Translations under genes and position numbers: made by a program
In this document: positions 7,445 to 44,762 of the stretch, piece by piece
How the letters are laid out: each line of letters begins with the position of its first letter
How positions within the stretch are numbered: the first letter of the stretch is position 1
The notes under the pieces: generated by a model
Told to the model about the DNA's origin: nothing
The model's database searches: none
Seen by the model: only the letters and a program-made list of their open reading frames with translations
NCBI GenBank assembly: GCA_964613715.1
Contig: CAZTJK010000003.1
Location: forward strand, 7,322 to 71,321
From: an uncultured Candidatus Saccharibacteria bacterium
GTDB taxonomy: Bacteria; Patescibacteriota; Minisyncoccia; Phycocordibacterales; GWA1-40-21
Length of the DNA stretch: 64,000 nt
Reading direction: 5' to 3'

Positions 7445-8647
7445 ATGGCAGAATTTTTGAGAGACAAACCGCACGTAAACGTCGGCACCATCGGTCACAT
7501 TGACCACGGCAAGACGACCCTTACCGCGGCTATTACCCATGTCCAGTCTTTGAAGGGCCTGGCAAATCAGATCGCCTACGATCAGGTCGCGAAAGCCTCC
7601 GAATCAGCAGGCCGCCGCGACGCATCGAAGATCATCACGATCGCGATCTCGCACGTTGAATACTCGTCAGACACGAGACACTATGCGCATGTGGACTGCC
7701 CAGGACACGCTGACTATGTGAAGAACATGATCACGGGTGCCGCCCAGATGGACGGTGCTATCCTCGTGGTATCCGCAGTCGACGGCCCGATGCCGCAGAC
7801 CCGCGAACACATCCTGCTTGCAAAGCAGGTTGGTGTGCCGAAGATCGTCGTCTTCCTCAACAAGTGCGATCTCGTCACCGATAAGGACCTTCTCGACCTC
7901 GTCGAGTCGGAAATCCGCGACCTTTTGACCAAGTATGGCTTTGACGGTGCAAATGCTCCGATCATCCGCGGTTCGGCAACCGGCGCTCTTGCAGCGACCA
8001 AGGCCGATGATGCGGGTGCAGCTTGCATCACTGAGCTTATGAAGGCGCTCGACACCTATATCCCGCTTCCAACACGCGATATCGACAAGCCATTCCTCAT
8101 GCCGATCGAAGACATCTTCTCCATTGAAGGTCGTGGCACCGTGGTTACGGGCAGAATCGAGCGTGGTCAGGTGAAAGTCGGTGAGGAAGTTGAAATCGTA
8201 GGTATCAAGCCGACGACAAAGACGACCATTACCGGTATCGAAATGTTCAACAAGCAGCTCCAGAGCGGCATGGCCGGCGACAATGCAGGCGTGCTCCTCC
8301 GCGGCACCAAGAAAGAGGATGTGCACCGCGGCCAGGTTCTTGCCAAGGCAGGAACGGTCACCCCGCACACCGAATTCGAGGCAGAAGTCTATGTCTTGAA
8401 GAAAGAAGAAGGAGGCCGCCATACGCCATTCTTCTCCGGCTACAAGCCGCAGTTCTACATGAGAACGACTGACGTTACTGGCGACGTGACCCTCGCATCA
8501 GGCGTGGAAATGGTCATGCCAGGCGACACCGTGACCTTCAAGGTCAAGCTCGTCGCTCCGGTCGCTCTTGAAGAGAAGATGCGCTTCGCATTCCGCGAAG
8601 GCGGCAAGACTGTCGGTTCCGGCGTTATCACGAAAGTCATCGCCTAA
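7445..8647 (+). CDS. tuf: elongation factor Tu
   Basis: [26 protein letters not shown]...[10 protein letters not shown]. The ATG at 7445 is preferred over the longer track ORF. Confidence 0.97.
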
Positions 8648-19907: not shown

Positions 19908-20147
19908 TCAGTGGGCTACCCGTCGTGCCGGATGAATATCATGCATTCGCATGAACCGTTCGACTTCTTCCGGGGTGCCGGAAAAGATCAAGCGGCCGTT
20001 TGCATACAGATATTCGCGCGGCGGCACGTAGTAGCGGTAGGAAGAAGCGTCCGAGTTCCATTCCCATTGGTATCCCATATGGGCGACGCAACCGGATATG
20101 CTTGTTCCGAGCAGTATGAAAAGAAAAAAGAACGCATATTTTTGCAT
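19908..20147 (-). CDS. small putative lipoprotein
   Basis: The signal peptide plus lipobox MQKYAFFFLFILLGTSISGC points to a lipoprotein. The internal ATG was chosen as the start. Confidence 0.4.
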   Translation of the reverse strand: MQKYAFFFLFILLGTSISGCVAHMGYQWEWNSDASSYRYYVPPREYLYANGRLIFSGTPEEVERFMRMHDIHPARRVAH

Positions 20148-20235
20148 CACGCACCTCCCATCTCTTTTTACAGAGTACCGCATTTATAATATTTGTCAAT
20201 ACAGGTTCTCAGGGCCATTTTGCTATACTTTTTGC

Positions 20236-20868
20236 ATGAAAAACAACACACAAAATACTGATCTCGAGAATTGCTGCGATTGCGGCTCATGCGGCGATCT
20301 GGAAATGGTTGAAGTCGGCCAGAAAGTGCCGGCATTTGAGGCGAAAGCGCTTCATGGCGGCAAAGAAAAGAATATCAAGCTTGCCGATTACAAAGGGAAG
20401 TGGGTGATTGTCTTTTTCTATCCGAAGGATTTCACGTTCATCTGCCCGACCGAGCTTGAGGAAATGGCCGACTACTATGATAAGTTCAAGAAATTGAATA
20501 CCGAAGTGCTGTCAGTCTCCGTCGATACGGTGGAAGTGCACAAGGCATGGCAGGATGTATCAAAAGCGATCAAGAAAGTGAAATTCCCGATGCTCTCGGA
20601 CGCGACGCATGAGCTTTCTGAAATGTTCGGCACGTATATTCCGGAAGAAGGAGTGTCGCTCCGTGGCACATTTGTGATTGATTCGGACGGTGTACTCAAG
20701 TCGATGGAAGTGAATGATAATTCGATCGGCCGCTCCGCGAAGGAGCTCTACCGTAAGCTCCAGGCGGCGCAATTCGTCGCGACGCATGGCGGCAAAGTCT
20801 GCCCGGCATCATGGGAGCCGGGGGATGATACGCTTGAGCCCGGGCTTGATCTTGTGGGAAAGATATAA
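20236..20868 (+). CDS. 2-Cys peroxiredoxin (AhpC/TSA family) with a Cys-rich N-terminal extension
   Basis: It carries the peroxidatic FTFICPTE and the resolving GKVCPASW. The N-terminal sequence is MKNNTQNTDLENCCDCGSCGD. A -10 TATACT lies 4 nt upstream of the ATG. Confidence 0.85.
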   Translation: MKNNTQNTDLENCCDCGSCGDLEMVEVGQKVPAFEAKALHGGKEKNIKLADYKGKWVIVFFYPKDFTFICPTELEEMADYYDKFKKLNTEVLSVSVDTVEVHKAWQDVSKAIKKVKFPMLSDATHELSEMFGTYIPEEGVSLRGTFVIDSDGVLKSMEVNDNSIGRSAKELYRKLQAAQFVATHGGKVCPASWEPGDDTLEPGLDLVGKI

Positions 20869-20871
20869 AAA

Positions 20872-20904
20872 GAAAAACCGCTCTCATGTGAGAGCGGTTT
20901 ATTG
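20872..20904. terminator. bidirectional terminator
   Basis: aaaccgctctcatgtgagagcggttt sits between convergent genes. Confidence 0.6.
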
Positions 20905-21198
20905 TTCAGGCTCGAATTCGCTTGCCCAGTAGGTCGAGATCTGGCGGTCATCGAGATGCTCGACGAACCACAAGGTATCGCCGTCATGCGTCGGCACTTT
21001 GTAGAGCACTTTCGCGAGCATGTTGCTTTGCCGGTTTTTCAGGCGATCGGGCGAGACAAGATGGATCGGCTTTTCTTTGAGGGTGCCTGTGCGGATGCGC
21101 AGGCCTTTTGTAACGAGACTGCTGTCCATGATCGGCTCCTTTCGGGAAAAGATTCTGCCGCCATCATAGCATAGCTGCTTTTTTCCGAAAGGGGACAT
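20899..21198 (-). CDS. hypothetical protein
   Basis: 99 aa from the ATG at 21198. An alternative start at 21129 gives 76 aa. No recognisable domain. Confidence 0.35.
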   Translation of the reverse strand: MSPFGKKQLCYDGGRIFSRKEPIMDSSLVTKGLRIRTGTLKEKPIHLVSPDRLKNRQSNMLAKVLYKVPTHDGDTLWFVEHLDDRQISTYWASEFEPEQ

Positions 21199-21213
21199 GG
21201 TATACTCTTTCGT

Positions 21214-21564
21214 ATGATCGAATTTTTCAAAAATACGCTGCCAGGCGGCCTCGTCGCTCTCCTTTATTTCCTCCTGTTCTTTTTCATCGTGCCACTCGAT
21301 GTGAAATGCACGTATCATTCGCCCACCAATTACTGCGCGCAGCTCATTGAAAAAGATACATTGCCAGCATTTTTGCCGCCCACGCTCTTGCCGATCGACC
21401 TGACATTCTTTTCCCCGGTGTATCAGACACTGACATTTTTGACGCTTCACTTCACGCCGATTGATCCGAATGACACGGCACTCATCATTCTCTTGGATGG
21501 GGCAATCTTTTACTTGGGCGGCAGTATCGTGTGGGGATTGTTGCGGAAAATAGTAGGGCGATAA
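21214..21564 (+). CDS. hypothetical membrane protein
   Basis: 116 aa. The extended -10 TGgTATACT lies 7 nt upstream of the ATG. Confidence 0.4.
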   Translation: MIEFFKNTLPGGLVALLYFLLFFFIVPLDVKCTYHSPTNYCAQLIEKDTLPAFLPPTLLPIDLTFFSPVYQTLTFLTLHFTPIDPNDTALIILLDGAIFYLGGSIVWGLLRKIVGR

Positions 21565-21572
21565 GGTAGTGA

Positions 21573-21610
21573 AAAAAGGCGGGTCGCGCGAAGCGCGACC
21601 CGCCTTTTTG
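21573..21610. terminator. rho-independent terminator
   Basis: aaaaaggcgggtcgcgcgaagcgcgacccgccttttt. Confidence 0.6.
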
Positions 21611-21614
21611 TATG

Positions 21615-21637
21615 TTGTGGAGATGGCGAGAATCGGT
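21615..21637. repeat. partial direct copy of the tmRNA 3' end (acceptor/T-arm)
   Basis: ttgtggagatggcgagaatcgg resembles ttgtggagatgggcggaatcga at 21814-21836. Twelve nt match exactly and about 20 of 23 match overall. The copies are 199 bp apart. Confidence 0.5.
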
Positions 21638-21816
21638 CACGAATAAATTTCCTGACAGAAATTTTTCGCGACCCCGGCTCGCTATTTTTGCCTTTGCTTC
21701 GTAAAACAAAAATAAAGCTGCGCCCGTTCGATTCCGACGCACGCAAAGCAGTTTGCGTGCTCCTGAATCTTACTTATAAAAATAGCCCGACACGAAGTCG
21801 GGCTATTTTTATATTG

Positions 21817-22219
21817 TGGAGATGGGCGGAATCGAACCGCCGTGCAAATGATTGTTACCGATGATTCTACAAAGTCTAGTCGAATTTTTTCGCCGAAGCG
21901 AATTTAAGTGGAAAGGCTATAAGACGACAAAATACCTTCCTGCCGATTCTCTACAGTTCATATCGCGTCGAGAATCCGCGACATATACTCTGAATTATAT
22001 TCCACCCCGGTCCGAGTAATCAGATGTGCTCGGGCGGGACGTCGCTTAGGCTATTGCGTAAGCGAAGGACGCGTTCGAAACTCCGAAATACGGAGAGACG
22101 AGAGACGCGACCTTGCGAGAAATGCTGTTTGCATTTGTCATCCTGACGGTTAAGGAGTGTACAGGGTGCTCCACTTTGCTCATGCGGGAACGGATCAGTT
22201 GTCTAGGCCGATCATCCCC
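21817..22219 (-). ncRNA. ssrA: tmRNA (SsrA)
   Basis: The 5' end GGGGATGATCGGCCTAGAC pairs with the 3' end ...GGTTCGATTCCGCCCATCTCCA (tRNA-like T-arm and acceptor). An internal tag ORF reads ...ANSISRKVASLVSPYFGVSNASFAYAIA* (stop at 22046). smpB sits immediately upstream and a terminator immediately downstream. Confidence 0.85.
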
Positions 22220-22224: not shown

Positions 22225-22671
22225 TCATTCGTTTTTCAATGTCCTCCGGATCTCGCGGTCCGATTCGCGCTTCCTGATGCTTTCGCGCTTGTCAGATTTC
22301 TTCTTGCCGCGGCCGATGCCAAGCTGTACTTTCAGCTTGTGTTTATTATTATACACTGAAAGTACGACTATCGTCAAGCCTTTCTGATTTTCCACTTTCG
22401 CGAGCCGCTCGATTTCCTTTTTTGTCAGAAGCAGGCGGCGGTTCCTGCGTTCGTCATAATCCTTTGGCGCATTTTTCGGCTGGAGCGGTGTCACAGCAGC
22501 GCCGATGAGGTATGCCTCACCTCCTCGGATCGTCGCGTATGCCCCATCAAGCGTCATGCGTCCCGCGCGAATCGCTTTCACTTCGATACCAAGCAGCTCA
22601 ATACCCGCCTCTATTTTCTCGAGGATTTCGTAGTTGAAATATGCTTTTCTATTTTCAGCGAATGCAGCCAT
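22225..22671 (-). CDS. smpB: SsrA-binding protein SmpB
   Basis: KAYFNYEILEKIEAGIELLGIEVKAIR...LLLTKKEIERL matches SmpB. The start at 22671 is preferred. Confidence 0.93.
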   Translation of the reverse strand: MAAFAENRKAYFNYEILEKIEAGIELLGIEVKAIRAGRMTLDGAYATIRGGEAYLIGAAVTPLQPKNAPKDYDERRNRRLLLTKKEIERLAKVENQKGLTIVVLSVYNNKHKLKVQLGIGRGKKKSDKRESIRKRESDREIRRTLKNE

Positions 22672-22765: not shown

Positions 22766-23188
22766 TCAGGGAGTGTTCGCCTTCGCTTTTTCTGTGCTCA
22801 CCAGCTTGCTCTTTTCGATGAACGTAAACCACATATATGCTCGTCCTACATAACTCGGATCAATAACCCGGACTGCTTGCAGGATGACATATTTACCGGC
22901 ATCATTTCCAATCATCCGATTGAAAACTTCTTGCAAGGTCATTCCCTCAACTATCCTGCTGGATAAGTTCTCTGAGACGTCTTGTCGTACAGCGAGCGGA
23001 TCACTCACTTGTTCCATGGTGGCCGCTGGCGCCATATAAATGACGTCAGCCGAACTTGCTCCTTTACTGCTTTGTCCGCTGCTGCCGATCAGATAACCAA
23101 ACATGAAACTGCCTGTACCGGCATGGCTTGCGCCCGCGTTCATGAGGCAAAAAATCCCTACAACCAGTGCGGCGATATATGTACGCAT
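22766..23188 (-). CDS. hypothetical secreted protein
   Basis: Signal peptide MRTYIAALVVGIFCLMNAGASHA. 140 aa. Confidence 0.45.
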   Translation of the reverse strand: MRTYIAALVVGIFCLMNAGASHAGTGSFMFGYLIGSSGQSSKGASSADVIYMAPAATMEQVSDPLAVRQDVSENLSSRIVEGMTLQEVFNRMIGNDAGKYVILQAVRVIDPSYVGRAYMWFTFIEKSKLVSTEKAKANTP

Positions 23189-23335: not shown

Positions 23336-25294
23336 ATGGATAATCCGAAGAACAAAAAGCAGGGGAAAAAGCAACCGGGCAAGGGCGCATCGCGCTTTTT
23401 CGGCGGGGGAAACGGCCCGATGTCGTATTTCACGAAGATCGGCAATGCGATCGTCATCCTCTTTGTCATTTCACTGCTCTATTCATTTCTTTTTGGCAGC
23501 TCGACTGCTGAACAGCAGATTCCGATCTCGCAGCTTGCAAGCGATATCAATGCTGGGCTCGTGCAAAAGATTGACGTGAAGTCTGACGACCTAACGATCA
23601 CCTATGCCACAACATCGGCAAATGCAGCTGCAGCAGTGAAGACTTCAAAAAAGGAAGAAGGCGTTGCGCTGACCGAGACGCTTGCGAACTACAAAGTCGC
23701 GCCGGAAAAGCTTGCAGTCGTGAATATCACGATCGAGAGCGATACCGGCTTTGGCTATTGGTTCCTCAATCTCGCGCCATTCGTTATTCCGCTCATTATT
23801 ATCGGTATTTTCATTTGGATGCTCATGCGACAGATGAAGGGGACGGGCATGCAGGCATTGTCATTTGGTCAATCGAAAGCGCGCATCATATTGCCAAGCG
23901 ACAAGAAGCAGCGCGTGACATTCGCGGATGTCGCTGGTGCAAAAGAGGCGAAAGAAGAGCTTGCTGAAGTTGTTGATTTCTTGAAGAATCCGAAGAAATT
24001 CCTCGATATCGGCGCTAAAATCCCGAAAGGCATACTCCTCATGGGCGCGCCAGGCACCGGCAAGACGCTCCTTGCGCGCGCAGTCGCAGGCGAGGCGGGC
24101 GTGGCATTCTTCTCGATTTCCGGCTCCGAATTCGTCGAGATGTTCGTGGGCGTCGGCGCTTCGCGTGTGCGCGACCTTTTCAAAATGGCGAAAGCTGCAG
24201 CACCAGCGATCATTTTTGTCGATGAGATAGACGCGGTCGGCCGTATTCGCGGCGGCGGCGTGGGCGGGGGAAATGATGAGCGCGAGCAGACACTCAACCA
24301 AATACTCGTTGAGATGGATGGCTTCGAGCAGAATGAGAAAGTGATCGTCATGGCGGCGACGAACCGCCCGGACGTGCTCGACAGCGCGCTTTTGCGCCCT
24401 GGTCGCTTCGATCGCCGTGTGGTGATCGACTTGCCGGATCGCAATGACCGCGAAGCGATACTCAAAGTACATTCGAAGGAAAAGCCATTTGCGGAAGATG
24501 TGAATCTCCGCACGGTTGCCGAGCGCACGCCGGGCTTCTCGGGTGCCGATCTCTACTCCCTTATGAATGAAGGCGCCATTCTCGCTGCGCGCGAAGGCCG
24601 TCAGAAGATTTCCCAATACGATCTCATCCGTTCCATCGAAAAGGTCATGATGGGCCCGGAGCGCAAGAGTCATATTCTCTCGAAGAAAGAAAAAGAAATC
24701 ACCGCGTACCATGAAGCAGGACATGCGCTCGTCTCATCCGTCTTGCCGTATGCCGATCCCGTGCACAAGGTCTCGATTATCGCGCGCGGCCGTGCAGGTG
24801 GCTATACACTCCACTTGCCGTTTGAGGACAAGCGCTTGCAATCGAAAAAGGAATTCATGGATGATATCGCGGTGTCCCTTGGTGGCTATGTGACAGAAAA
24901 GATGATGTTTGGCGATCTCACGACCGGCCCGTCGAATGACTTGCAGGTCGCGACCGCACTTGCACGTGATATGGTCACGAAATACGGCATGTCCGATGCA
25001 TTCGGCCCGGTAGCACTCGAGGGCGAAGGCGGCCGCACAATGTTCGGCAAAGGCGTCGGCGACAAGGAATATTCCGACAAGGTGAATGCCGAGATCGATC
25101 AGGAAGTGACGAATATTATGAATATGAATATGAAGCGTGCCGAGAAAATAGTTACGGATAATAAGAAGGCGCTTGATGCGATTGCGAAGAAACTCATTGA
25201 AACGGAAACGATCGAGCGGGAAGATTTCGAGAAGATTCTTGTGGCAAACGGGATCATGCCAAAGAAAAAGGAAGATATCGAACATCAGGCCTAG
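23336..25294 (+). CDS. ftsH: ATP-dependent zinc metalloprotease FtsH
   Basis: AAA+ Walker [24 protein letters not shown] zinc site, N-terminal TM. Confidence 0.95.
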
Positions 25295-25310
25295 GTTATT
25301 GTATTTTGCT

Positions 25311-25360
25311 CGTACCCAAAAGAAAAATGCGGAGCAGTCCGCATTTTTCTTTTGGGTACG
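25311..25360. repeat. long perfect palindrome (22-23-bp arms, 5-nt loop) acting as a bidirectional terminator. Its right arm includes the 3' end of tRNA-Ile.
   Basis: cgtacccaaaagaaaaatgcgga-gcagt-ccgcatttttcttttgggtacg. Confidence 0.6.
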
Positions 25361-25430
25361 CCCGCCTGGATTCGAACCAGGGACCACGAAGGTATAAGCT
25401 TCGCGCTCTAACCAGCTGAGCTACGGGCGT
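25357..25430 (-). tRNA. tRNA-Ile (anticodon UAU)
   Basis: Manual fold: acceptor acgcccg/cgggcgt, D-arm gctc-agctggtta-gagc, anticodon arm cgaag-cTTATAc-cttcg, T-arm cctgg-ttcgaat-ccagg. 74 nt. The 1-72 pair is A-U and CCA is not cleanly encoded. Confidence 0.75.
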
Positions 25431-25549
25431 ATGCGCCTATGCTATAGCAAAACGAGCTTCGCGGCAATTCATTTTCTTGCTGCAAGCGGGCCCGCATGCT
25501 AGGCTCAAAAAAGAAGCAGTCACAATCCTGAAAAAGAAAGGAGCCGGGC

Positions 25550-35539: not shown

Positions 35540-36661
35540 ATGAAGAACCCTTTTGCAGATCTGATCAGCAAATTCGCCCCGGCGCAGAAAAGCCCGAGCG
35601 TGCTTGGCATCGACATCGGCTCCTCCTCCGTAAAAATGGTGCAGCTGAAGAAAAAAGGCGGCAAAGCGATCCTTGAAACCTATGGTGAAATCGCACTCGG
35701 CCCGTATGCGGGGACGGATGTGGGGCGCGCAAGCGTGCTCGGAGCAGCGAAAGTATCGGATGCCCTGAAGGATCTTTTGCGCGAGGCCAATACCACGACG
35801 CTTGAAAGCGGACTCTCTATTTCCGTCGGCTCAAGCTTTATCGTGTTCATGAAATTGCCGAAGTCCGATGAAAAGCGTCTTGCTGAAATGGTGCCGATCG
35901 AAGCGCGCAAATATATTCCAGTGCCGATTTCTGAAGTTTCGCTCGACTGGTGGGCGATACCGCAGGATGAGAGCACCGTCTCCGAATTTCAGAATGGCCA
36001 GAAAGTGACCGAGGATAAAGAGTCCGAAGTATTGCTCATCGTCATTCACAATGATGCGATCACAAAAAATAAAGACATTCAAAAGCTTGCTGGTCTGAAC
36101 GTCAGCTTTTCCGAAGTGGAAATTTTCAGCTCGATGCGCGCAGTGCTCGAGCCGGCAATCGCGCCGCAGATGATCATGGATTTCGGCGCGGGATCGACGA
36201 AAGTATTCATTGTCGAGCGCGGCATCCTGAAAGCATCGCATGTGATCAACCGCGGCGCGCAAGATATCACCATCGCTATTTCGAAATCGCTCAACCTGCC
36301 ATTTGATGAGGCAGAAAAAGTAAAACGTATCCAGGGCATCACCAGCGGCGGAGTAGGAGCGAATATCGCCGAGGTATCATCCGTCACCATCGACTACATT
36401 CTTGCGGAAACCGGCCGCTTCGTCCTTTCATACTACAAGAAATCCGGCAAGAAATTGACGAAAACGGTACTCACCGGCGGCGGCGCTCTTTTGAAGGGTC
36501 TCAAGGAAAAGGCGCAAGCCGCATTCGAGACGCCAGTGGAAGTGGCGAATCCGTTTGCCAAGGTAGATTACCCCGCCTTTCTCGAAGAGACGCTCAAAAA
36601 TGCCGGTCCGGAATTCGCCGTTGCTATCGGCATCGCCATCCGCAAGCTCCAGGAAATATAG
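35540..36661 (+). CDS. pilM: type IV pilus assembly protein PilM
   Basis: Actin-like ATPase fold. VLGIDIGSSSVKMVQL. 373 aa. Confidence 0.85.
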   Translation: MKNPFADLISKFAPAQKSPSVLGIDIGSSSVKMVQLKKKGGKAILETYGEIALGPYAGTDVGRASVLGAAKVSDALKDLLREANTTTLESGLSISVGSSFIVFMKLPKSDEKRLAEMVPIEARKYIPVPISEVSLDWWAIPQDESTVSEFQNGQKVTEDKESEVLLIVIHNDAITKNKDIQKLAGLNVSFSEVEIFSSMRAVLEPAIAPQMIMDFGAGSTKVFIVERGILKASHVINRGAQDITIAISKSLNLPFDEAEKVKRIQGITSGGVGANIAEVSSVTIDYILAETGRFVLSYYKKSGKKLTKTVLTGGGALLKGLKEKAQAAFETPVEVANPFAKVDYPAFLEETLKNAGPEFAVAIGIAIRKLQEI

Positions 36662-36718
36662 TCCACACGGGATTTCTTGCCCGGGGCGCAGTTTTTCGTG
36701 ATATACTAAGCATAGGAA

Positions 36719-37342
36719 ATGGATACGAAATTCCAAACATCGTTCATACCGAAAAAGCCGATCGGGGATTCCCGCGGCTCCCGAGCGGGCATCAGCCTGT
36801 TTCTCCTCGTGTCGCTCATCATTTTCTTCATCATGGCCGGCATTGCCGCGTGGGTATTCCTCGAAAAGAAGATTCTCGTGCAGGGCATCGCGAGCCAGCA
36901 GGCAACGATCAGCACGAACAAGACCGGCCTGATTTCCGACCAGATCACGGTGCAGAGCATCGTGGATCTCAACTCCCGCATCATCGCCGCCAAGCAGCTT
37001 TTGGCGCAGCATATTTCGGTCTCGCCGGTATTCGCGTTTTTCCAGCAGACAACGCTCAAGAATGTGCGCTTCAATAATTTCAATTTTGCTGCAAGCGGCA
37101 AGGACGACAGCGGTAAAGTCGGCGTTTCTGTGCAGATGTCGGGCCTCGCCCGCGATTGGGAGACGGTGGCATCCCAGGCTGATGAATTTGGCCTGTCGGA
37201 ATGGCGCAATATCATCAGCCAGCCGAAAATCTCAAACTTGAGCCTGAACGGCGACGGCAGCGTGTCATTCGTCTTTACGGCGATCATCAATCCGGATTTC
37301 ATCGTCTACGGCAACCCGCAGGCGATCCCATCGCAAAATTAA
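36719..37342 (+). CDS. PilN-like bitopic pilus assembly protein
   Basis: 207 aa with a single N-terminal TM. It follows directly after pilM. Confidence 0.5.
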   Translation: MDTKFQTSFIPKKPIGDSRGSRAGISLFLLVSLIIFFIMAGIAAWVFLEKKILVQGIASQQATISTNKTGLISDQITVQSIVDLNSRIIAAKQLLAQHISVSPVFAFFQQTTLKNVRFNNFNFAASGKDDSGKVGVSVQMSGLARDWETVASQADEFGLSEWRNIISQPKISNLSLNGDGSVSFVFTAIINPDFIVYGNPQAIPSQN

Positions 37343-37346
37343 TAAC

Positions 37347-37916
37347 ATGAACTTCCTTTTTCCAATCATTCTCATCATCACATCCATCGGCCTCTTTTTC
37401 GGCTACATTGATCCGAACTACAAGGGCACTGGTGCAACCGGCGACTATACCACGATGGGCATCATTCCGCTGCGTGCCGAGCTTGCGAAGTATCAGGATA
37501 TCGCCAAGAGCTCCAACTCAATCGTCTCCGAGCGCGACAACCTGGTCAAGAAGAAAAATACGATTTCAAATGACGATCAGGCACGCCTCGAGCGTTTGCT
37601 GCCGTCGAATATCGACAATATCCGCCTGATCATCGAGATCAGCCAGATCGCCGCAAACCGCGGCCTCGTAGCCAAGAATATTTCTGTCTCCTCGAATGCC
37701 AAACCGGCAACTGCCGCCATCGGCCCGAACGATTCCCTCTATGGCACGCTGACAATGAACTTCACTGTCAACGCCTCGTACAGCAATTTCCTGAATTTCC
37801 TCTCGGATTTGGAGAATAATCTGCGTCTGGTCGATATCACCAATATCACGTTCGGGTCGAGCGACAGTGGTTTCTATGATTTTTCAGTGACGCTCAATAC
37901 CTATTGGCTTAAATAA
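37347..37916 (+). CDS. PilO-like pilus assembly protein
   Basis: 189 aa with an N-terminal TM. Called from its position. Confidence 0.45.
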   Translation: MNFLFPIILIITSIGLFFGYIDPNYKGTGATGDYTTMGIIPLRAELAKYQDIAKSSNSIVSERDNLVKKKNTISNDDQARLERLLPSNIDNIRLIIEISQIAANRGLVAKNISVSSNAKPATAAIGPNDSLYGTLTMNFTVNASYSNFLNFLSDLENNLRLVDITNITFGSSDSGFYDFSVTLNTYWLK

Positions 37917-37921
37917 TACCT

Positions 37922-38257
37922 ATGAAGAAAAACATCGTCATTTTCATCGTGATCCTGCTGACCGTCCTTGTCGTCTTCTGGTATCTGGGATCGGACAGTT
38001 CCACGAGCTCTGATTCTTCGCTTTCGGCGGGGGAAACCTCCGCGCAGTCTGCCGATGCGCAGTACATCTATTCGCTGCTGCAGAAAATGGCGCAGGTAAA
38101 ACTCGATGATTCCATGTTCTCCAACCAGGTTTTCCAGTCCCTGAAAGACAATACCGTGTCATTTCCGCCGCAGGCAGCCGGCCGCGATAATCCGTTTGCG
38201 CCGATCGGCAGCTCGGGCGGTCCGGTCTCCACGACGACGATTCGTATTAAGCAATAA
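37922..38257 (+). CDS. hypothetical secreted protein in the pilus operon (PilP-like position)
   Basis: 111 aa with an N-terminal TM or signal and a Ser-rich linker. Confidence 0.35.
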   Translation: MKKNIVIFIVILLTVLVVFWYLGSDSSTSSDSSLSAGETSAQSADAQYIYSLLQKMAQVKLDDSMFSNQVFQSLKDNTVSFPPQAAGRDNPFAPIGSSGGPVSTTTIRIKQ

Positions 38258-38263
38258 TTCGCC

Positions 38264-39985
38264 ATGAACGTACTTGAACTTTTGGCCAACAAAAAGGTCA
38301 TCGGCAAAGGCGACGTCGCGAAAATCGAGAAGCAGGCAAGCGCATCGGGAAAAACGATTGAAGAAATTCTCGAATCAAGCGGTGTATCCGCCGATGCGAT
38401 TCTCGATGCAAAAGGCGAGTACTACAATCTCCCGACGCAGAATCTCGAAGGCCGGGAAGTCGGCTTTTCAGTATTGAAATACGTGTCGAGCGACGCGGCG
38501 AACCGCTACGGCTTTGCGCCGATCGGCATCAAGGACGGTACCTTGGAGCTCGGCATCGTGGATCCGGAAAATATCGAGGCGCGCGACGCGATCAGCTTCA
38601 TCGTCGGCAAGCTCAATGTGCCCTACAAGCTCTTCGTCATTTCCGAAAAGGATTTTGCAAAGGTGATCGAAAGCTACAAAGGTCTTTCCGGCGAAGTAAA
38701 AAAGGCGCTCAATGAGCTCGAGACCGAGCTGTCGAGCGATGTCGAAGGCGTTGATATCATCAAGAATGAGGAGAAGCAGGAGAATCCGGCTGATACGCGT
38801 ATCATTGAAGATGCGCCGGTGACAAAAATCGTCGCGACGATTCTCCGCTACGCCACCGAAGGCAATGCCTCAGACGTGCATATCGAGCATATGTCAGACA
38901 AGATCCGCGTGCGCTTCCGCGTCGACGGCGTTTTGAATACCTCGCTCGTGCTTCCGGTCGAAGTGCATCAGGCGGTCGTTGCGCGCATCAAGATTCTCTC
39001 GAACATGCGTCTCGACGAGAAGCGCAAACCGCAAGACGGCCGTTTCAGCGCCAATATCGAAGGCCGCAAGATAGACTTCCGCGTGTCCACCTTCCCATCT
39101 TATTACGGCGAAAAAGTGGTGATGAGAATTCTTGACCAGGAAAAAGGCGTCAAGCCTTTGGAGCAAATGGGTCTCTTGCCGCGCTATCTCTCGATGGTCC
39201 GCGATGCGATGCAGCGCCCGTACGGTATGATTCTCATTTCCGGTCCGACCGGTTCCGGTAAGACGACGACGCTCTATTCTATGCTTCAGGAAATCAACAA
39301 GGATCAGAAAAACGTCCTCTCGCTCGAAGACCCGATCGAATACAATATTGAAGGCATGAGCCAATCGCAGGTCTTTCCTGAAATCGGCTACGATTTCGCG
39401 AATGGCTTGCGCACGACGCTCCGCCAAGACCCGGACATCATCATGGTTGGCGAGATCCGCGATAAAGAGACCGCGCAGCTTGCCGTGCAGGCCGCGCTCA
39501 CCGGCCACCTTGTGCTTTCGACTATTCATACCAATACCGCCTGCGGCGTGATTCCACGCCTCATCGATATGGGCGTCGATCCGTATCTGATTGCACCGAC
39601 CCTCATCCTTGCCATGGGACAGCGCCTCGTTTCCCAATTATGTCCGGGTACCGGCAAGCCGATCGAGGTGACCGGCAGCATGGAGGCAATGATCAAACAC
39701 CAATTCGATGATTTGCCGGCAGAATTCAGGAAAGAAATTCCGGAAACCGTGCAGCTATTTGAAAAAGAATCAACGCCGCAATGCCCAACCGGCACCAAAG
39801 GCCGCCTCGCTGTCTTTGAAATGTTCAAGATGGATCATGATATTGAAGAAGTCATCCTCAAAAACCCAGTGGAATCCGAAGTATTCCGCACTGCGCGCAA
39901 GAAGGGCCTGATTACGATGAAAGAAAATGCCATGATCAAAGCCATGGAAAAGGTGATCCCGTTCGAGGAAATCAACCAGCTCTAG
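38264..39985 (+). CDS. pilB: type IV pilus assembly ATPase PilB (GspE family)
   Basis: Walker A ISGPTGSGKTTTL, Asp/His boxes, tetracysteine CPGTG...CPTG. 573 aa. Confidence 0.93.
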   Translation: MNVLELLANKKVIGKGDVAKIEKQASASGKTIEEILESSGVSADAILDAKGEYYNLPTQNLEGREVGFSVLKYVSSDAANRYGFAPIGIKDGTLELGIVDPENIEARDAISFIVGKLNVPYKLFVISEKDFAKVIESYKGLSGEVKKALNELETELSSDVEGVDIIKNEEKQENPADTRIIEDAPVTKIVATILRYATEGNASDVHIEHMSDKIRVRFRVDGVLNTSLVLPVEVHQAVVARIKILSNMRLDEKRKPQDGRFSANIEGRKIDFRVSTFPSYYGEKVVMRILDQEKGVKPLEQMGLLPRYLSMVRDAMQRPYGMILISGPTGSGKTTTLYSMLQEINKDQKNVLSLEDPIEYNIEGMSQSQVFPEIGYDFANGLRTTLRQDPDIIMVGEIRDKETAQLAVQAALTGHLVLSTIHTNTACGVIPRLIDMGVDPYLIAPTLILAMGQRLVSQLCPGTGKPIEVTGSMEAMIKHQFDDLPAEFRKEIPETVQLFEKESTPQCPTGTKGRLAVFEMFKMDHDIEEVILKNPVESEVFRTARKKGLITMKENAMIKAMEKVIPFEEINQL

Positions 39986-40033
39986 GCATCTTTTTTGCAA
40001 GAGCGGGGAGTGATGCTATACTGATAACCGAAT

Positions 40034-40423
40034 ATGTCCGATACGAAGCGCATTTTAATAACTGATGACGACAAGTTTCTCTTGAGCATGTACTCGATGA
40101 AGTTCGAAAAGAGCGGATTCGAGGTGAAAATCGCTTCAAGCGGCGCCGAAGCGCTCGATACGCTGCGCTCCGGCTTCAAGCCGGACATACTTCTGTTTGA
40201 TCTCATCATGCCTATCATGGACGGCTTTGCCGTCTATGAGGCAGTCAAAAAAGAAAAGCTTGCTTCGGGGGCAATCGCGATCATGCTGACGAATCAGGGA
40301 CTGAGCACTGATATCAGCCGGGCGAAGGAGCTTGGCGTCGCCGGATATATCATCAAAGCGACGACGATCCCCTCGGAAGTGGTGAGCGAAGTACTGGCGA
40401 TTTATCAGAAGAGCAAGAAATAA
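40034..40423 (+). CDS. single-domain response regulator (CheY-like receiver)
   Basis: ILITDDD...DILLFDLIMP...GYIIK is a REC domain. 129 aa. Confidence 0.8.
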   Translation: MSDTKRILITDDDKFLLSMYSMKFEKSGFEVKIASSGAEALDTLRSGFKPDILLFDLIMPIMDGFAVYEAVKKEKLASGAIAIMLTNQGLSTDISRAKELGVAGYIIKATTIPSEVVSEVLAIYQKSKK

Positions 40424-40457
40424 AGAGTTCTTTTTATTCAATTAACGCTATATTGCG

Positions 40458-41519
40458 ATGGAATACAAAAAAGAGTTGGAAGAGCTGATCAAGATCGTGT
40501 TTCAGGAAGGTGCATCCGACCTGCATCTTGCGGAGGGAAAGCGACCAACAATCCGCGTTTCAGGTCTCTTGCTGCCGCTCGTCAAGCGCGACATGATCGA
40601 CCATGAATCGATGCTCGGCATTCTCTCGCAGCTTGTCACCAAGGAGCATCGCGAGATATTCCTCCGCGATAAGGAGCTCGATTTCTCTTATGCCATGGAT
40701 AATGGCGAGCGTTTCCGCGGCAATGCCTTTTTCCAGCAAGGACTCATCTCCATTGCACTGCGTCTCATCCCGAAAAAAATACGCAGCCTTGCCGAGCTCA
40801 ATCTGCCTGAGACGCTCAAGGTATTTGCCGACAAGCCACAGGGATTCTTTCTTGTCGTCGGTCCCGTTGGCCACGGCAAGACGACGACGCTTGCCGCGAT
40901 GATCGAGCATATCAATGAATCCCGCGCCGAGCATATCATCACGATCGAAGACCCGATCGAGTATGTTTACGAAGCGAAAAAATCGATCGTCGACCAGCGC
41001 GAAATCCGCCTCGATACGAAGGATTTTCCGACAGCGCTGCGCAGCATGTTTCGCGAGGATGTCGACGTGGCGCTCATCGGCGAGATGCGCGGATCGGAAA
41101 CCATCGGCACTGCTGTCACTGCAGCGGAAACCGGACACCTCATCTTCTCGACTTTGCATACCAATTCGGCCGCACAGACGATCAGCCGCATCATCGACTC
41201 GTTTCCGGCAGAGCAGCAGGCGCAGATCCGCATTCAGCTTGCCGGGTCGCTCACCGGCATCCTTTCGCAGCGTCTCATTCCGCGCATTTCCGGCGGCCTC
41301 ATCCCGGCATACGAACTGTTGATCAATAACAATGCCGTGGCGAACCTGATCCGCGAGAACCGCATCCATGAGATCGCAAGCGTGATCGAGACCTCTTCGC
41401 AGGAAGGCATGGTGGATCTCAACCGCAGCCTGTCCGAGCTTGTCTCCCGCGGGGAAATCACGGTGGAGAACGCGTACATCTACGCGACCGATACGAGAAT
41501 TTTGGAAAAAATGCTATAA
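40458..41519 (+). CDS. pilT: twitching motility ATPase PilT
   Basis: Walker A VVGPVGHGKTTTL and GEMRGSETI. 353 aa. Confidence 0.93.
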   Translation: MEYKKELEELIKIVFQEGASDLHLAEGKRPTIRVSGLLLPLVKRDMIDHESMLGILSQLVTKEHREIFLRDKELDFSYAMDNGERFRGNAFFQQGLISIALRLIPKKIRSLAELNLPETLKVFADKPQGFFLVVGPVGHGKTTTLAAMIEHINESRAEHIITIEDPIEYVYEAKKSIVDQREIRLDTKDFPTALRSMFREDVDVALIGEMRGSETIGTAVTAAETGHLIFSTLHTNSAAQTISRIIDSFPAEQQAQIRIQLAGSLTGILSQRLIPRISGGLIPAYELLINNNAVANLIRENRIHEIASVIETSSQEGMVDLNRSLSELVSRGEITVENAYIYATDTRILEKML

Positions 41520-41548
41520 TTACGGATAATTAAGTACGCGTATCACGG

Positions 41549-42757
41549 ATGACATTCAAATATACAACAATAGATGCGAGCGGCGCGAGCAAAGCGGGAA
41601 CCATCGACGCCATTAATATGGAAGTGGCGATCGCCGCGCTCCAGAAACGCGGCCTTTCCGTGGTCTCGATCAAGCCTGAAGAAGAGGGTGCCTCACTTTT
41701 TTCGAAAAATATTTCTTTCTTCGACCATGTGTCGAACAAGGATATCGTCATCCTGTCGCGCCAGATGGCGACCCTGTTCGAAGCGCAGGTTTCCGCACTG
41801 CGCATTTTCCAGCTCTTGGCCGTGCAGGCAGAAAACGCCGTATTACGCCGGAAACTGAAGGAAATCGTCGACGATCTGCAGGCCGGGAGCTCCATTTCGG
41901 CCGCGCTCGCGAAACATCCCGATGCTTTCTCGCAATTTTATGTGAATATGGTGCGCGCAGGCGAAGAGTCGGGCAAGCTCGATCAGACATTCATGTATCT
42001 TGCCGATCATCTGGACCGCACCTATGAAGTGAACTCGAAAGTAAAGACCGCCCTCATCTATCCGTCTTTCGTCGTCTTCACGTTCATTGCCGTCATGGTG
42101 CTCATGCTTGTTGTTGTCATCCCGAAAATCAGCGGCATTCTCAAGGAATCCGGACAGGCAGTGCCGATTTACACGAAAATCGTTCTCGGCTTCTCGAGCT
42201 TTCTTGTCAATTACGGCCTGTTTCTCCTGATCGGCCTTGTCGTCGGCGGATTCTTCCTTTTCCGCTATTCGCGCACCGAAACGGGAAAAGTCGCTTTTGA
42301 TGAGCTGAAAATTACCATGCCATTTGTCAGAAAGCTCTATTCAAAGCTCTATCTCTCACGCATCGCCGACAATATGAATACCATGATCGTTTCCGGCATT
42401 CCGATGGTCCGCGGCCTCGACATCACTTCGTCAGTCGTCGACAATCTCGTGTTCAAGCAGGTACTCGATAAGACCGTCGAAGATATCAAGGGTGGCAGCT
42501 CGGTATCGGACGCCATGGGCAAACATGAGGAAATCCCGGGCATTTTCGTGCAAATGGTGAAAATCGGCGAGGAAACCGGCCAGCTCGGTAATATCCTCAA
42601 AACGCTTGCGAATTTTTATCGCCGGGAAGTAACGAATACCATTGATGCGATGGTAAGCCTCATTGAGCCGGCCATGATTGTGCTCCTTGGTTTTGGTGTG
42701 GCATTTCTCATGGCATCCGTCCTTGTGCCTATCTACAATATTTCCGCAGGTATATAG
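41549..42757 (+). CDS. pilC: type IV pilus inner-membrane platform protein PilC (GspF family)
   Basis: 402 aa with two GspF repeats. Confidence 0.9.
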   Translation: MTFKYTTIDASGASKAGTIDAINMEVAIAALQKRGLSVVSIKPEEEGASLFSKNISFFDHVSNKDIVILSRQMATLFEAQVSALRIFQLLAVQAENAVLRRKLKEIVDDLQAGSSISAALAKHPDAFSQFYVNMVRAGEESGKLDQTFMYLADHLDRTYEVNSKVKTALIYPSFVVFTFIAVMVLMLVVVIPKISGILKESGQAVPIYTKIVLGFSSFLVNYGLFLLIGLVVGGFFLFRYSRTETGKVAFDELKITMPFVRKLYSKLYLSRIADNMNTMIVSGIPMVRGLDITSSVVDNLVFKQVLDKTVEDIKGGSSVSDAMGKHEEIPGIFVQMVKIGEETGQLGNILKTLANFYRREVTNTIDAMVSLIEPAMIVLLGFGVAFLMASVLVPIYNISAGI

Positions 42758-42965
42758 TCTTCGCTACAGTTTTAAAAAGCCTTATTTTCCCTAGTTATCC
42801 ACACCTATTTTTGCAAGGGTGTATAATTCTTTCGTAAGCTTGAATATTGCAATATTCGCGCTTTTCGGTTCGCTTCTCGCCTTGAGCAAGGAGAAAGCAA
42901 GCCGGACAGGCGGAAAAAACAAGCTCATTATTAAGGATTAATTTTTATCGATAGAAATTAAGATT

Positions 42966-44758: not shown

Positions 44759-44762
44759 ACCT

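Follow-up and report, generated by a model that had tools for sequence, protein, structure and literature searches.

A structured, protein-less unit repeating the tmRNA 3' end lies behind ssrA in a Patescibacteria genome and recurs behind tmRNA and tRNA genes of relatives

The ssrA locus

The window analyzed here, a 64,000-nucleotide stretch of a Patescibacteria genome, carries ssrA, smpB and a short non-coding interval downstream of ssrA on the minus strand, and a related element behind a tRNA-Gln gene on the plus strand (Table 1). The Rfam tmRNA model RF00023 aligns over model positions 1–374 to 21814–22219 (minus) at 77.3 bits (gathering score, 47; E = 2.8e-28); ARAGORN missed the tmRNA in the window, and Rfam was required to find it. 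The acceptor stem, GGGGAUG/CAUCUCC-A, is tRNA-Ala-like and, as read from the sequence, keeps the G3·U70 pair, while the T arm is GGCGG-UUCGAUU-CCGCC. The discriminator A at 21817 is followed by CAA, and CCA is therefore not encoded. Directly upstream, ending 6 nt before ssrA, lies smpB, whose homologues in 80 related loci, all from metagenome-assembled genomes of Patescibacteria/Paceibacterota, show 55–82% identity. The model score, the tRNA-Ala-like acceptor stem and T arm, the smpB neighbor and the tag frame establish that the window ssrA encodes a normal one-piece tmRNA.

A candidate promoter is located roughly 130 nt upstream of ssrA, within the end of smpB. In the window, 0.7 kb separates ftsH from smpB, which we note as an adjacency only. 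Across the clade, the tmRNA T stem occurs in at least nine variants between otherwise invariant flanks.

Table 1. Features of the window at the ssrA and tRNA-Gln loci
Feature	Position	Strand	Basis and remarks
ssrA (tmRNA), one-piece	21817–22219	minus	Rfam RF00023, full model; nhmmer homologues in ~60 related loci
Tag reading frame	22046–22132	minus	Resume codon GCA 22132–22130, 28 codons, stop TAA 22048–22046; Rfam alignment and translation
smpB, 148 aa plus stop	22225–22671	minus	ATG at 22671; Pfam PF01668 on identical product
Sigma-70-like promoter, TTGACG, 18-nt spacer, TATAAT	22348–22377	minus	Consensus scan, 11/12 positions; pattern match only
Terminator 1, left end of unit	21775–21813	minus	Perfect 17-bp palindrome, 5-nt loop
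Decayed inverted copy of acceptor 3' strand	21763–21772	minus	TAAGATTCAG, relatives TGGAGATG; alignment with type-A relatives
P2 hairpin	21739–21760	minus	GCACGCAAA-CUGC-UUUGCGUGC, 9 bp and tetraloop; fold
Inverted copy of T-stem 3' strand and T loop	21726–21738	minus	GTCGGAATCGAAC; repeat search and T-stem match table
Short junction helix around P4	21722–21726 / 21674–21678	minus	Fold
P4 hairpin, U-rich 5' strand, A-rich 3' strand	21681–21718	minus	Fold; covarying in type-A and model alignments
Long hairpin GGUCGCG...CGUGACC, type-A module	21635–21673	minus	Fold; RNAalifold helix, 12 pairs
Distal direct copy of tmRNA 3' end	21615–21635	minus	CGATT-CTCGC-CATCTCC-A-CAA
Terminator 2	21573–21609	minus	17-bp GC-rich palindrome, then T run; repeat search and terminator scan
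tRNA-Gln(CUG)	57633–57703	plus	ARAGORN and Rfam
Type B element behind tRNA-Gln	57726–57863	plus	Covariance model R1, 39.2 bits, E 4e-6

The tmRNA tag

The consensus resume codon of the Rfam model aligns to GCA, with a 49-nt insertion in the tag region, and the frame translates to ANSISRKVASLVSPYFGVSNASFAYAIA, ending in ..FAYAIA. An initial annotation, made from the DNA letters, had recognized ssrA and proposed the same 28 residues and resume position. The gene identity is borne out by RF00023 and the adjacent smpB; the translation is identical, and the covariance model does not shift the resume codon further downstream, so that no normal short tag results. The annotation had also called the tag unusually long, which holds against model organisms but not within the clade, where no tag length is commoner than 27–28 residues and the tag sequence is conserved. 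Tags of 27–28 residues occur in 37 of 76 relatives' tmRNAs with the common layout ..SKVA..VSP[FY]FG..FAYALA, and ARAGORN finds homologous tags of 24–30 residues in relatives. Among 18 tags of 28 residues, third codon positions vary most often (23 of 28), followed by first (18) and second positions (16). The 28-residue tag is standard for this Paceibacterota clade.

Long tmRNA tags of ~27 residues, adapted to Lon protease, are found in Mycoplasma. The tags described here resemble these in belonging to a reduced-genome lineage, in their conserved length of 25–30 residues and in their hydrophobic/Ala end, but the sequence differs (..VSP[FY]FG..FAYALA). A conserved 27–28-residue tag with an internal VSP[FY]FG suggests a proteolysis-adaptor logic unlike that of E. 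coli in these reduced genomes.

The tmRNA 3' end is repeated downstream of ssrA

The 12-mer CCATCTCCACAA occurs twice in the window, at 21615–21626 and 21814–21825, where 0.28 occurrences are expected by chance. The match extends ungapped to 32 nt, 26 of which are identical (81%), at a spacing of 199 nt. In register with the tmRNA, the distal copy comprises part of the T loop, the 3' strands of the T stem and acceptor stem, and the discriminator; its T-stem strand reads CTCGC vs CCGCC in ssrA, and the CTCGC type is known from tmRNAs of other lineages. Each copy is followed by a palindromic terminator (terminators 1 and 2). No ORF is present within the 199-bp interval, and an exact-protein look-up of the 116-aa ORF downstream matched no record. 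An independent Logan assembly (SRR12313479, locus L084) is 100% identical over 20036–21844, across the whole interval and into ssrA, and the arrangement is therefore not an assembly artefact of the window. The runs SRR12313477–80 contain this genome at 100% identity.

Could the repeat be a chance match of a short sequence? For the 12-mer alone this would be moderately unlikely, with two or more matches in only 1 of 100 shuffles. The extension to 26 of 32 positions, and the same arrangement at more than 25 other loci, each fitting its own tmRNA, refute this reading, to which we give practically no credence.

A family of units behind tmRNA and tRNA genes

The segment from 21813 down to 21615 is a partly decayed copy of a family of small protein-less units. 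In relatives, these units are ~130–230 nt long, have no ORF in any copy and are positioned exactly at the 3' end of tmRNA or tRNA genes. Their order on the gene strand is: palindromic terminator; inverted acceptor 3' strand; the 9-bp hairpin P2; inverted T-stem 3' strand and T loop; the core, built from two or three hairpins that covary; and a direct copy. The inverted copy represents the gene's last ~20 nt, split by P2, and the direct copy its last 16–20 nt. In a folded single strand the two copies pair, and the acceptor/T-stem helix of the neighboring gene is rebuilt.

Several parts of this layout are retained in the window. Terminator 1 has A-rich and T-rich flanks and can thus act in both directions; an equivalent hairpin is missing from empty sites in relatives (L100, compared with L076, L042 and L107). 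By analogy with empty and filled sites in relatives, terminator 2 is probably the original ssrA terminator. The inverted acceptor strand is decayed, the exact TGGAGATG being found at the corresponding position in relatives, while the inverted T-arm match extends over 16 nt with 88% complementarity to the tmRNA T arm at 21827–21842. In nearly all copies the P2 stem measures 9 bp; 9 of 9 pairs show compensatory changes, 98.6% of cells are paired, and the type-A long hairpin has a conserved G·U pair in five of eight sequences. The window copy folds with a z-score of −5.06. Searched against the relatives' elements with nhmmer, it matches those of L001 (E = 2e-19), L015 (6e-8) and L010 (2e-5), and it can be aligned column by column with seven type-A relatives. 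Its assignment to the family is based on the nhmmer matches and the type-A alignment, because the type-B covariance model does not score it as one full-length match.

In the element behind tRNA-Gln, an exact inverted copy GCTGCGGGA (57726–57734), P2 (57736–57752) and the inverted T stem (57753–57761) are followed by the core and by a 16-nt exact direct copy GTCCAAGTCCCGCAGC at 57848–57863. Its fold has a free energy of −53.4 kcal/mol (z = −3.69).

Behind ssrA, units are present at at least 25 loci, each matching the tmRNA sequence of its own locus. Exact inverted and direct copies are found in L015, L029, L076, L042, L057, L028, L007, L005, L010, L001, L012 and L047, and in 17 of 46 metagenome loci, the latter being the yield of a sequence pattern first validated on the relatives' loci. 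Other targets are tRNA-Ile(UAU) (at least 10 loci), tRNA-Ser(GCU) (L090) and, in the window, tRNA-Gln. The same core subtype occurs behind different genes, even inside one genome: core identity is 85% between the ssrA and tRNA-Ile units of L057, between L035 (Ile) and L090 (Ser), and between L029 (ssrA) and L116 (Ile-type arms). Permissive scans of 21540–21830 and 57620–57900 with Rfam 15 returned, besides tRNA-Gln itself, only terminator-like noise far below gathering scores, and literature searches found no description of such units. The units recur right behind tmRNA and tRNA genes of ultra-small (Paceibacterota) bacteria, and no Rfam family, phage match or paper was found for them.

Fold, covariation and strand

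The covariance model was seeded from a single sequence with a hand-trimmed minimum-free-energy structure, because MAFFT, applied to whole units, misaligned their variable ends. It finds 33 copies at E < 1e-3. Since the alignment is fitted to the model structure, pair counts are inflated; with this caveat, 93.2% of cells are paired in the 33 copies vs 62.8% in shuffled controls, and double changes are seen at 41 of 42 pairs. The score for covariation reaches 0.603, compared with 0.165 in shuffles (0 of 500 reach 0.603) and at most 0.10 in slid controls, and six of six helices covary strongly. Covariation thus strongly supports the modeled fold.

One alternative, which we regard as rather unlikely and which is compatible with a mobile origin, is that the units are resident non-coding RNA genes, i.e., putative tRNA-like small RNAs transcribed with or just after their neighbors. 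The closing helix, which copies the acceptor and T stems, could be bound or processed by RNase P, RNase Z, the CCA-adding enzyme, EF-Tu or a toxin, and the RNA might be a decoy, a processing aid, or a regulator of a particular tRNA or tmRNA. The strong covariation of all the helices agrees with such a role, as do an excess of G·U over A·C (54 vs 23), a gene-strand fold that is the more stable one in 19 of 21 copies, and the conserved G·U pair of the type-A hairpin. The tRNA-Gln copy has no separate terminator between gene and unit, which makes co-transcription likely there, and in ssrA copies the closing helix has A-U at the position of the tmRNA's G3·U70, which would prevent alanine charging. 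In most copies, however, a strong terminator separates gene and unit, and room for a separate promoter is absent. The discriminator is also paired with position −1 in 18 of 29 copies, unlike in a tRNA-processing substrate, and the T loop is absent, the T-stem strand being followed by the complement of a T loop instead. Moreover, the 5' strand of the closing helix is lost in the window ssrA copy and many distal copies do not pair with the inverted T stem, so selection looks weak; patchy occurrence and tandem arrays also speak against a resident gene.

The proximal palindrome behaves differently with respect to strand: it contains 510 Watson-Crick pairs, 10 G·T and 9 A·C, without strand bias, and P2 is almost purely Watson-Crick. 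Because of this, DNA-level palindrome maintenance could explain part of the apparent covariation. In another reading, the whole unit would be a DNA-level by-product without mobility: terminator palindromes behind tRNA-type genes would extend into the acceptor and T-stem strands by intrastrand template switching (quasi-palindrome correction), nearby direct repeats would come from slippage, and shared cores from gene conversion. The near-perfect palindrome would fit, and the terminator palindromes of the window tRNA-Ile and of ssrA in L092 reach a few nucleotides into the acceptor strand where no unit is present. The inverted copy also tracks the host T stem, with 0–1 mismatch in 22 of 24 cases. 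We nevertheless consider this account highly improbable, since it leaves unexplained (i) the 9-bp hairpin that always splits the inverted copy at the acceptor/T junction, (ii) the conserved multi-hairpin core common to different genes and genomes, and (iii) the clean empty sites and tandem arrays of whole units described below.

Probable insertion behind ssrA

In L100, ssrA is followed directly by CAAAAATAACGAGC, and the same flank follows the distal copy in L076, L042 and L107; L094 and L101 show this pattern as well. L100 thus represents an empty site. Close relatives without a unit behind ssrA are L002–L004, L006, L008, L009, L011 and L013. At the other extreme, L087 carries a tandem array of whole units, and decayed arrays are present in L001, L012, L112 and L120. 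As in genomic islands, a direct repeat bounds the insert and the gene is restored, and the right end of the element has the same sequence as the target duplication. Logan contigs for the genome of the window were either identical to it or stopped inside ssrA; neither an excised or circular form nor an empty-site allele or strain-level presence/absence polymorphism was seen.

A candidate enzyme was searched for at several levels. No recombinase, transposase or reverse transcriptase was found among ~50 Pfam-scanned ORFs of the window, and inspection of ORFs in the relatives' flanks showed no recombinase-like gene. Larger ssrA insertions in relatives (e.g., L088 and L116) have flanks with only ordinary or unknown ORFs and, by the same inspection, no integrase. 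An autonomous parent was found neither in viral contigs (pattern scans with core and P2 motifs) nor in phage genomes (blastn).

These data bear on the initial annotation, which had reported the duplicated ssrA 3' end (as 21615–21637), interpreted it as an integrase footprint and suggested that the ~180 bp between the copies are the scar of a lost island. The duplication at 199 nt is confirmed, with a match that extends over 32 nt. It does mark insertion at ssrA, given the empty sites in relatives, where the flank beyond the distal copy abuts ssrA directly; no integrase gene was seen in or near any copy. The scar interpretation does not hold, since what lies between the copies is a self-contained, highly structured unit that is conserved behind ssrA and several tRNA genes of many relatives. 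That the repeat might belong to a conserved structured element unrelated to ssrA had been named as a finding that would speak against an insertion scar; such an element exists, but it is tied to the ssrA 3' end.

A random scar, with an integrase-bearing island in ssrA later deleted and attL and attR left close together, would account for a direct repeat that starts in the T loop and ends shortly beyond the discriminator, like the att sites of tRNA and tmRNA islands, and for the larger ssrA insertions in relatives; tmRNA gene fragments arising from island integration are a known phenomenon (PMC4131195). Against this, the interval is homologous to units in many relatives and is not random, the same ordered modules of 130–230 nt with covarying helices stand behind several different genes, no copy shows an integrase remnant, and attP × attB recombination yields no inverted target copy. 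The scar reading is largely refuted by recurrence and covariation, and we consider it very unlikely.

From their distribution, i.e., presence or absence with clean empty sites, tandem and decayed arrays, and shared cores, we infer that the units are non-autonomous insertion elements. The best explanation for the locus as a whole, which we hold with slightly better than even confidence, combines a normal tmRNA and its clade-specific tag, a decayed family copy, and non-autonomous elements inserted by an enzyme encoded elsewhere. This enzyme would be a site-specific recombinase or strand transferase that probably places the unit at the tRNA-like 3' end, and the repeat would be an att-like duplication from the T loop to 1–4 nt past the discriminator. 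By analogy with the phage CTX attP hairpin and integron attC, the substrate may be a folded single strand, the element's hairpin mimicking the duplex target. The left-end terminator carried by the unit would let transcription of the tRNA or tmRNA gene still terminate properly once the unit is in place, and the unit might additionally act through a transcript.

Two observations complicate insertion. Cores are common to several targets, yet ~40 nt of arm sequence always fits the neighboring gene, which counts against it, and no single recombination model fits both the host-tracking inverted copy and the distal copy, which deviates at 2–4 of the 5 nt in 7 of 16 cases. In L010, a perfect repeat of 48 nt adjoins a T-stem segment that differs at three of five positions. 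A tentative possibility is that the units constitute a new class of Patescibacteria non-autonomous elements that end in their target's sequence, in which a folded DNA or RNA strand presents the acceptor/T-stem helix and the arms are re-templated per target, with fast tmRNA T-stem turnover as a side effect.

Comparison with known systems

Non-autonomous derivatives of integrase islands are known as cis-mobilizable elements. Like the attL/attR sites of integrase islands (Islander/Williams class; PMC4131195), the units lie exactly at a tRNA-type 3' end, have a repeat from the T loop to past the discriminator and leave the gene intact; empty sites in relatives and tandem pile-up, with older units more decayed farther from the gene, are further similarities. 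They differ in being 130–230 bp long with an integrase in no copy, in having covarying hairpins instead of cargo in their interior, in adding an inverted target copy, and in a distal copy whose T-stem type often departs from that of the host.

A second comparison is with hairpin recombination sites. In 32 distinct copies, the target-derived stems pair (acceptor-like in 87% of cells, T-stem-like in 92%), and the units thus carry a hairpin imitating a duplex target, of the type found in the attP(+) site of phage CTX, used by XerCD, and in the attC sites of integrons, used by IntI. In both, two inverted segments pair into a duplex that imitates the target, and in the units these stems covary. One-strand exchange of the CTX attP type would give the observed order of target, hairpin tip, inverted copy, body and direct copy. 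Unlike the units, which stand behind tRNA-type genes, CTX attP and attC target dif or attI and belong to gene-carrying phages or cassettes.

Small structured repeats include MITEs, REP/BIME, palindrome-associated elements of the IS200/IS605 family and Rickettsia palindromic elements. The units share with them a short, non-coding, hairpin-rich sequence, several copies per genome, intergenic positions by terminators, a probable mobilization in trans and mosaic modules. As in MITEs, terminal inverted repeats are present, inverted and direct target copies forming both ends in relatives, with the left end decayed in the window ssrA copy. Unlike the short target-site duplication of a MITE, that of the units is 14–20 nt (48 nt once, in L010), far above the usual size, and no transposase-bearing relative was found in the viral contigs and phage genomes searched. 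We know of no repeat of these types whose ends reproduce the last 20 nt of the neighboring tRNA or tmRNA gene.

Finally, mascRNA (from MALAT1) and bacterial YrlA are tRNA-like processed RNAs. The units resemble them in an acceptor-like closing helix stacked on a T-stem-like helix, downstream of another transcript, but lack a T loop, D arm and anticodon arm, have a paired discriminator, and copy the helix sequence from the neighboring gene.

Several other identities were dismissed on anatomical grounds, because the motifs or partner genes that define them are missing: retron msr-msd, permuted or two-piece tmRNA, group I intron P1/P10 pairing, hammerhead and other small ribozymes, and C/D or H/ACA guide RNAs. 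A primer-binding site does not fit, as its inverted copy would complement a mature tRNA with CCA, and that of the units instead runs into the gene's genomic flank, not TGG. TIGR-Tas arrays, known from Parcubacteria, consist of tandem 36-nt units with box C/D motifs and two 9-nt spacers that pair with opposite DNA strands, and a Tas gene lies alongside (bioRxiv 10.64898/2026.07.30.739390). The units described here measure 130–230 nt, their two guide-like segments pair with one and the same strand, and no Nop-domain or Tas protein is encoded among the scanned ORFs.

In practical terms, duplicated tRNA or tmRNA ends in these genomes are not automatically island scars, and island finders that rely on repeats will call false islands in Patescibacteria. 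Mobile units would be gene-less 130–230 bp elements whose ends are specified by the target gene, and the question of how a tRNA-type 3' end is recognized and copied would be answered either by a novel recombinase specificity or by a novel use of a folded strand. If the units are transcribed, the RNAs would mimic the upper half of a single, specific tRNA or tmRNA, to which the T-stem variants of the clade may be linked.

The tmRNA gene and its tag

The tmRNA gene, ssrA, has the 5' end GGGGAUGAUCGG and the 3' end GGCGG-UUCGAUU-CCGCC-CAUCUCC-A, and retains the G3.U70 pair. The discriminator A at 21817 is followed by CAA, and thus CCA is not encoded. SmpB relatives (55–82% identity) all come from Patescibacteria/Paceibacterota metagenome-assembled genomes, and the remaining genes of the window are housekeeping genes (ribosomal proteins, EF-G, EF-Tu, FtsH, RecG, LigA, GatA, ComEC, type IV pilus cluster). 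The order tRNA-Ile(UAU), ftsH, 140-aa ORF, smpB, ssrA is kept in many relatives. ARAGORN made no call for the tmRNA gene in the window; about half of the tmRNAs of relatives (L001–L080, loci fetched for comparison) were also missed, yet found by Rfam and nhmmer, and tmRNA annotation in this phylum is likely incomplete.

Features of the window in and around the analyzed loci
Feature	Position	Strand	Remarks
ComEC and type IV pilus/secretion ATPase cluster	28-1467 and 35540-46573		pilus cluster: PilM, two T2SSE ATPases, T2SSF, prepilin peptidase, pilins
Terminator 2	21573-21609		perfect 17-bp palindrome after distal copy
Terminator 1	21775-21813		perfect 17-bp palindrome after proximal copy
ssrA (Rfam tmRNA match)	21814-22219	minus	77.3 bits (gathering score 47), whole model covered
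smpB	22671-22225	minus	148 aa; ends 6 nt upstream of ssrA
Sigma-70-like site	~130 nt upstream of ssrA		TTGACG-18-TATAAT, good pattern match
140-aa ORF	22769-23188	minus	no Pfam match
ftsH	23336-25294	plus
tRNA-Ile(UAU)	25300-25431	minus	no element
Second element, type B	57726-57863	plus	3' of tRNA-Gln(CUG); gene and element 57633-57863

The resume codon of the Rfam covariance model aligns to GCA at 22132-22130, with a 49-nt insertion needed in the tag region, and the frame translates to ANSISRKVASLVSPYFGVSNASFAYAIA with its stop at 22048-22046, a tag identical to that proposed in the initial annotation. The length given there was correct, but what had been called unusually long is ordinary for the lineage: tags in the 76 tmRNAs of the fetched loci range from 12 to 30 residues, and 37 have 27 or 28. 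ARAGORN calls AKNISSKVAGIVSPFFGVKDLTFAYALA and near variants as the tag in the nearest relatives, and short tags (ANLF..PALAYA type) are confined to more distant ones. Across 18 distinct 28-codon frames, the third codon position varies at 23 of 28 codons, the first at 18 and the second at 16, and VSPYFG and FAYA are kept in the window's GC-richer gene despite many synonymous changes. The third-position excess and the retention of these motifs show that the long frame is translated and constrained; it is a trait of the clade and not a peculiarity of one genome. Other bacteria, Mycoplasma for example, also have tags of such length. A candidate for the protein that reads the long tag is FtsH.

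The repeated 3' end of ssrA

The sequence CCATCTCCACAA occurs at both 21814-21825 and 21615-21626 (chance expectation 0.28 occurrences per window), and the longer match covers 26 of 32 positions at a spacing of 199 nt, the distal copy reading CGATT-CTCGC-CATCTCC-A-CAA in register (21635-21615). Between the copies, a repeat search detected a 16-nt stretch (21721-21736) with 88% complementarity to the tmRNA T arm. Another run, assembled independently in Logan (L084), agrees with the window at every position over 20036-21844, and the arrangement is therefore no assembly accident. Three such assemblies (L081, L082, L084) match the window at 100% identity, and all break within the final 30 nt of ssrA; two contigs that run in from the smpB side end at 21819, and one that runs in from the opposite side ends at 21844. 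These ends indicate a branch of the assembly graph, which could be caused by a related species with the conserved 36-nt 3' end (a common k-mer) or, equally, by structural polymorphism; public assemblies of the window's own genome contained no empty-site allele.

The interval had been read as a possible scar of a lost island. It is not debris, but a somewhat decayed member of a recurring family of structured units: it matches units of other loci in nhmmer (L001, E 2e-19; L015, E 6e-8; L010, E 2e-5) and aligns module by module with seven type-A units. Its inverted acceptor segment is degenerate, with TAAGATTCAG where relatives show TGGAGATG. The predicted fold of the gene's strand has −59.4 kcal/mol (z −5.06), and that of the opposite strand −54.2 (z −4.53).

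A family of units behind tmRNA and tRNA genes

In six related loci (L015, L029, L076, L042, L057, L028), the locus's own tmRNA 3' end is copied 161–226 nt downstream, with a fixed order of modules: (1) the gene end; (2) a palindromic terminator; (3) the acceptor 3' strand and discriminator in exact reverse complement, TGGAGATG; (4) P2, a 9-bp hairpin with a tetraloop; (5) the T-stem 3' strand and T loop, likewise reverse-complemented, e.g. GCGAGAATCGAAC; (6) a core of more hairpins; and (7) a direct copy of the gene end. Further units behind ssrA are present in L001, L005, L007, L010, L012, L047 and 17 of 46 metagenome loci fetched by their tmRNA 3'-end pattern. Core type A, that of the window's ssrA copy, contains GCGAG.CGGGGUCG and then a long AU-rich hairpin whose last bases are GUGACC; type B is made up of ACCUU..AAGGU, a U-rich/A-rich hairpin, GUAC(A/U)G, and a hairpin with a GUA loop. 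P2 falls into two main sequence families, each seen with either core type and either target.

The same cores, with about 40 nt of arm sequence rewritten to fit, stand behind genes other than ssrA: tRNA-Ile(UAU) in at least ten loci, tRNA-Ser(GCU) in L090, and tRNA-Gln(CUG) in the window. The tRNA-Gln element, better preserved than the ssrA copy, consists of an exact 9-nt inverted copy GCTGCGGGA (57726-57734), a 6-bp P2, an inverted T-stem copy, a core of type B and, at 57848-57863, an exact direct copy of 16 nt, GTCCAAGTCCCGCAGC, with no separate terminator between gene and element. Neither window element matched an Rfam family, permissive thresholds included, and we found no description of the family in Rfam or in literature searches. 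Small and structured, the units form a family located at the 3' ends of Paceibacterota tmRNA and tRNA genes. The window's tRNA-Ile(UAU) is followed only by a palindromic terminator, the stem of which extends 3–4 nt into the acceptor strand (GTACCC...GGGTAC).

Insertion behaviour

The view that the duplicated tmRNA end marks insertion at ssrA is borne out by empty sites in relatives. The close relatives L002–L004, L006, L008, L009, L011 and L013 have no unit behind ssrA. In L100, ssrA leads directly into CAAAAATAACGAGC.., the flank that lies 3' of the distal copy in L076, L042 and L107; L094 and L101 show the same empty/filled relationship, with flank CTGCTTCGCTC.. From these pairs, the inserted DNA comprises terminator 1, inverted copy, P2, core and one repeat copy, and the second hairpin in them is the host's original terminator. 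The repeat in fresh copies runs from inside the T loop to 1–4 nt past the discriminator (14–20 nt in total).

Whole, identical units stand in tandem in L087, and decaying units form arrays in L001, L012, L112 and L120. In L088 and L116, among other loci, old main-family units lie 2–2.6 kb away behind unrelated ORFs, displaced by later insertions. The cores do not group by target; identity is 85% between the ssrA and tRNA-Ile cores of one genome (L057), between L035 (Ile) and L090 (Ser), and between L029 (ssrA) and L116 (Ile-type arms). Empty sites, arrays, shared cores and mixing of P2 form the pattern expected of a small, recombining, non-autonomous insertion element, and we hold a non-autonomous, site-specific insertion element to be the most likely reading, with modest confidence.

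The inverted T-stem copy differs from the host's present T stem at 0–1 positions in 22 of 24 ssrA cases. The distal direct copy is off at 2–4 of 5 positions in 7 of 16, often reading CCGCC irrespective of host; in the window, the host strand is CCGCC and the distal one CTCGC. In L010 the two repeats are identical over 48 nt, whole terminator included, yet the T-stem segment beside them departs at 3 of 5 positions; this may be the start of a second, mostly deleted unit. A T-loop crossover, an acceptor-strand crossover, a staggered-cut duplication and an IS608-like guide each fit some of these facts, and none fits all. At least nine sequences are seen for the tmRNA T stem across the clade (GGCGG, GTGAG, GCGCG, GCGGG, GGTGG, CCGAG, GACGG, GCGAG, GTGGG; 3' ends of L001–L013, L040, L087–L132) between the invariant ATCATTTGCAC, TTCRATT and CATCTCCA. 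Such compensatory turnover of one helix is unusually fast, and may be linked to the units.

Fold, strand and the search for a parent

A covariance model seeded from a single unit (L076) and its trimmed minimum-free-energy structure was searched against the ~0.9 Mb of fetched loci and detected 33 copies at E<1e-3. In their alignment, which is fitted to the model, standard pairs fill 93.2% of pair cells (62.8% in shuffled alignments), both partners have changed in 41 of 42 pairs, and the covariation score is 0.603, compared with 0.165 in shuffles (reached by 0 of 500) and at most 0.10 when partners were slid by 1–3 columns. Compensatory changes in the local hairpins P2, P4 and P5 are also visible in plain MAFFT/RNAalifold alignments. 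The gene's strand folds more stably in 19 of 21 units, G.U cells outnumber A.C cells (54 vs 23), and a G.U pair occurs in the type-A long hairpin of 5 of 8 sequences; together these moderately favour the strand that runs in the direction of the tRNA or tmRNA as the one that folds. The proximal palindrome has no strand bias (G.T 10, A.C 9). The main alternative, or an additional role, is a resident RNA that mimics tRNA, which we consider rather improbable.

If the units are insertion elements, the folded strand could possibly offer a recombinase, encoded at another locus, a copy of the target helix. ORFs are absent from all units, and ~50 ORFs scanned in the window include no recombinase, transposase or reverse transcriptase. 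On ORF inspection, the flanks of larger insertions at ssrA in relatives hold ordinary or unknown ORFs and small GIY-YIG-like genes, with no integrase. Neither 2.9 million viral contigs, scanned by pattern, nor 50,697 phage genomes, searched by blastn, yielded an autonomous parent. The ComEC/pilus set is DNA-uptake machinery that could import foreign copies of such elements.

Other recurrent inserts

A different insert occupies the first 150–400 nt after ssrA in L018, L020, L021, L031, L035, L052 and L094, with inverted repeats CTCGACTCG..CGAGTCGAG, a GTCCCGAG..CTCGAGGGAC hairpin and a small, putatively GIY-YIG-like ORF starting MYFVYMIKN..LYIG. Another short unit directly follows ssrA in L011, L088, L090, L102, L103, L115, L117 and L123; it starts with CTAGAACAAAAATAGAAT, has a terminator hairpin inside and finishes with ..GTTCTAAC.TCCTCTA. 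The type-A core may in itself be a separate mobile module. A ~70-nt module (AGACGG..GAGTCGGGGTCGCG..AU hairpin..CGTGACTACA; L007 ~900-1015, L101 ~7600-7720 on the minus strand, L006 100-520) is inserted alone between 6-nt direct repeats (TGTACG or TGTGCG), and small arrays of it also occur at sites away from tRNA genes.
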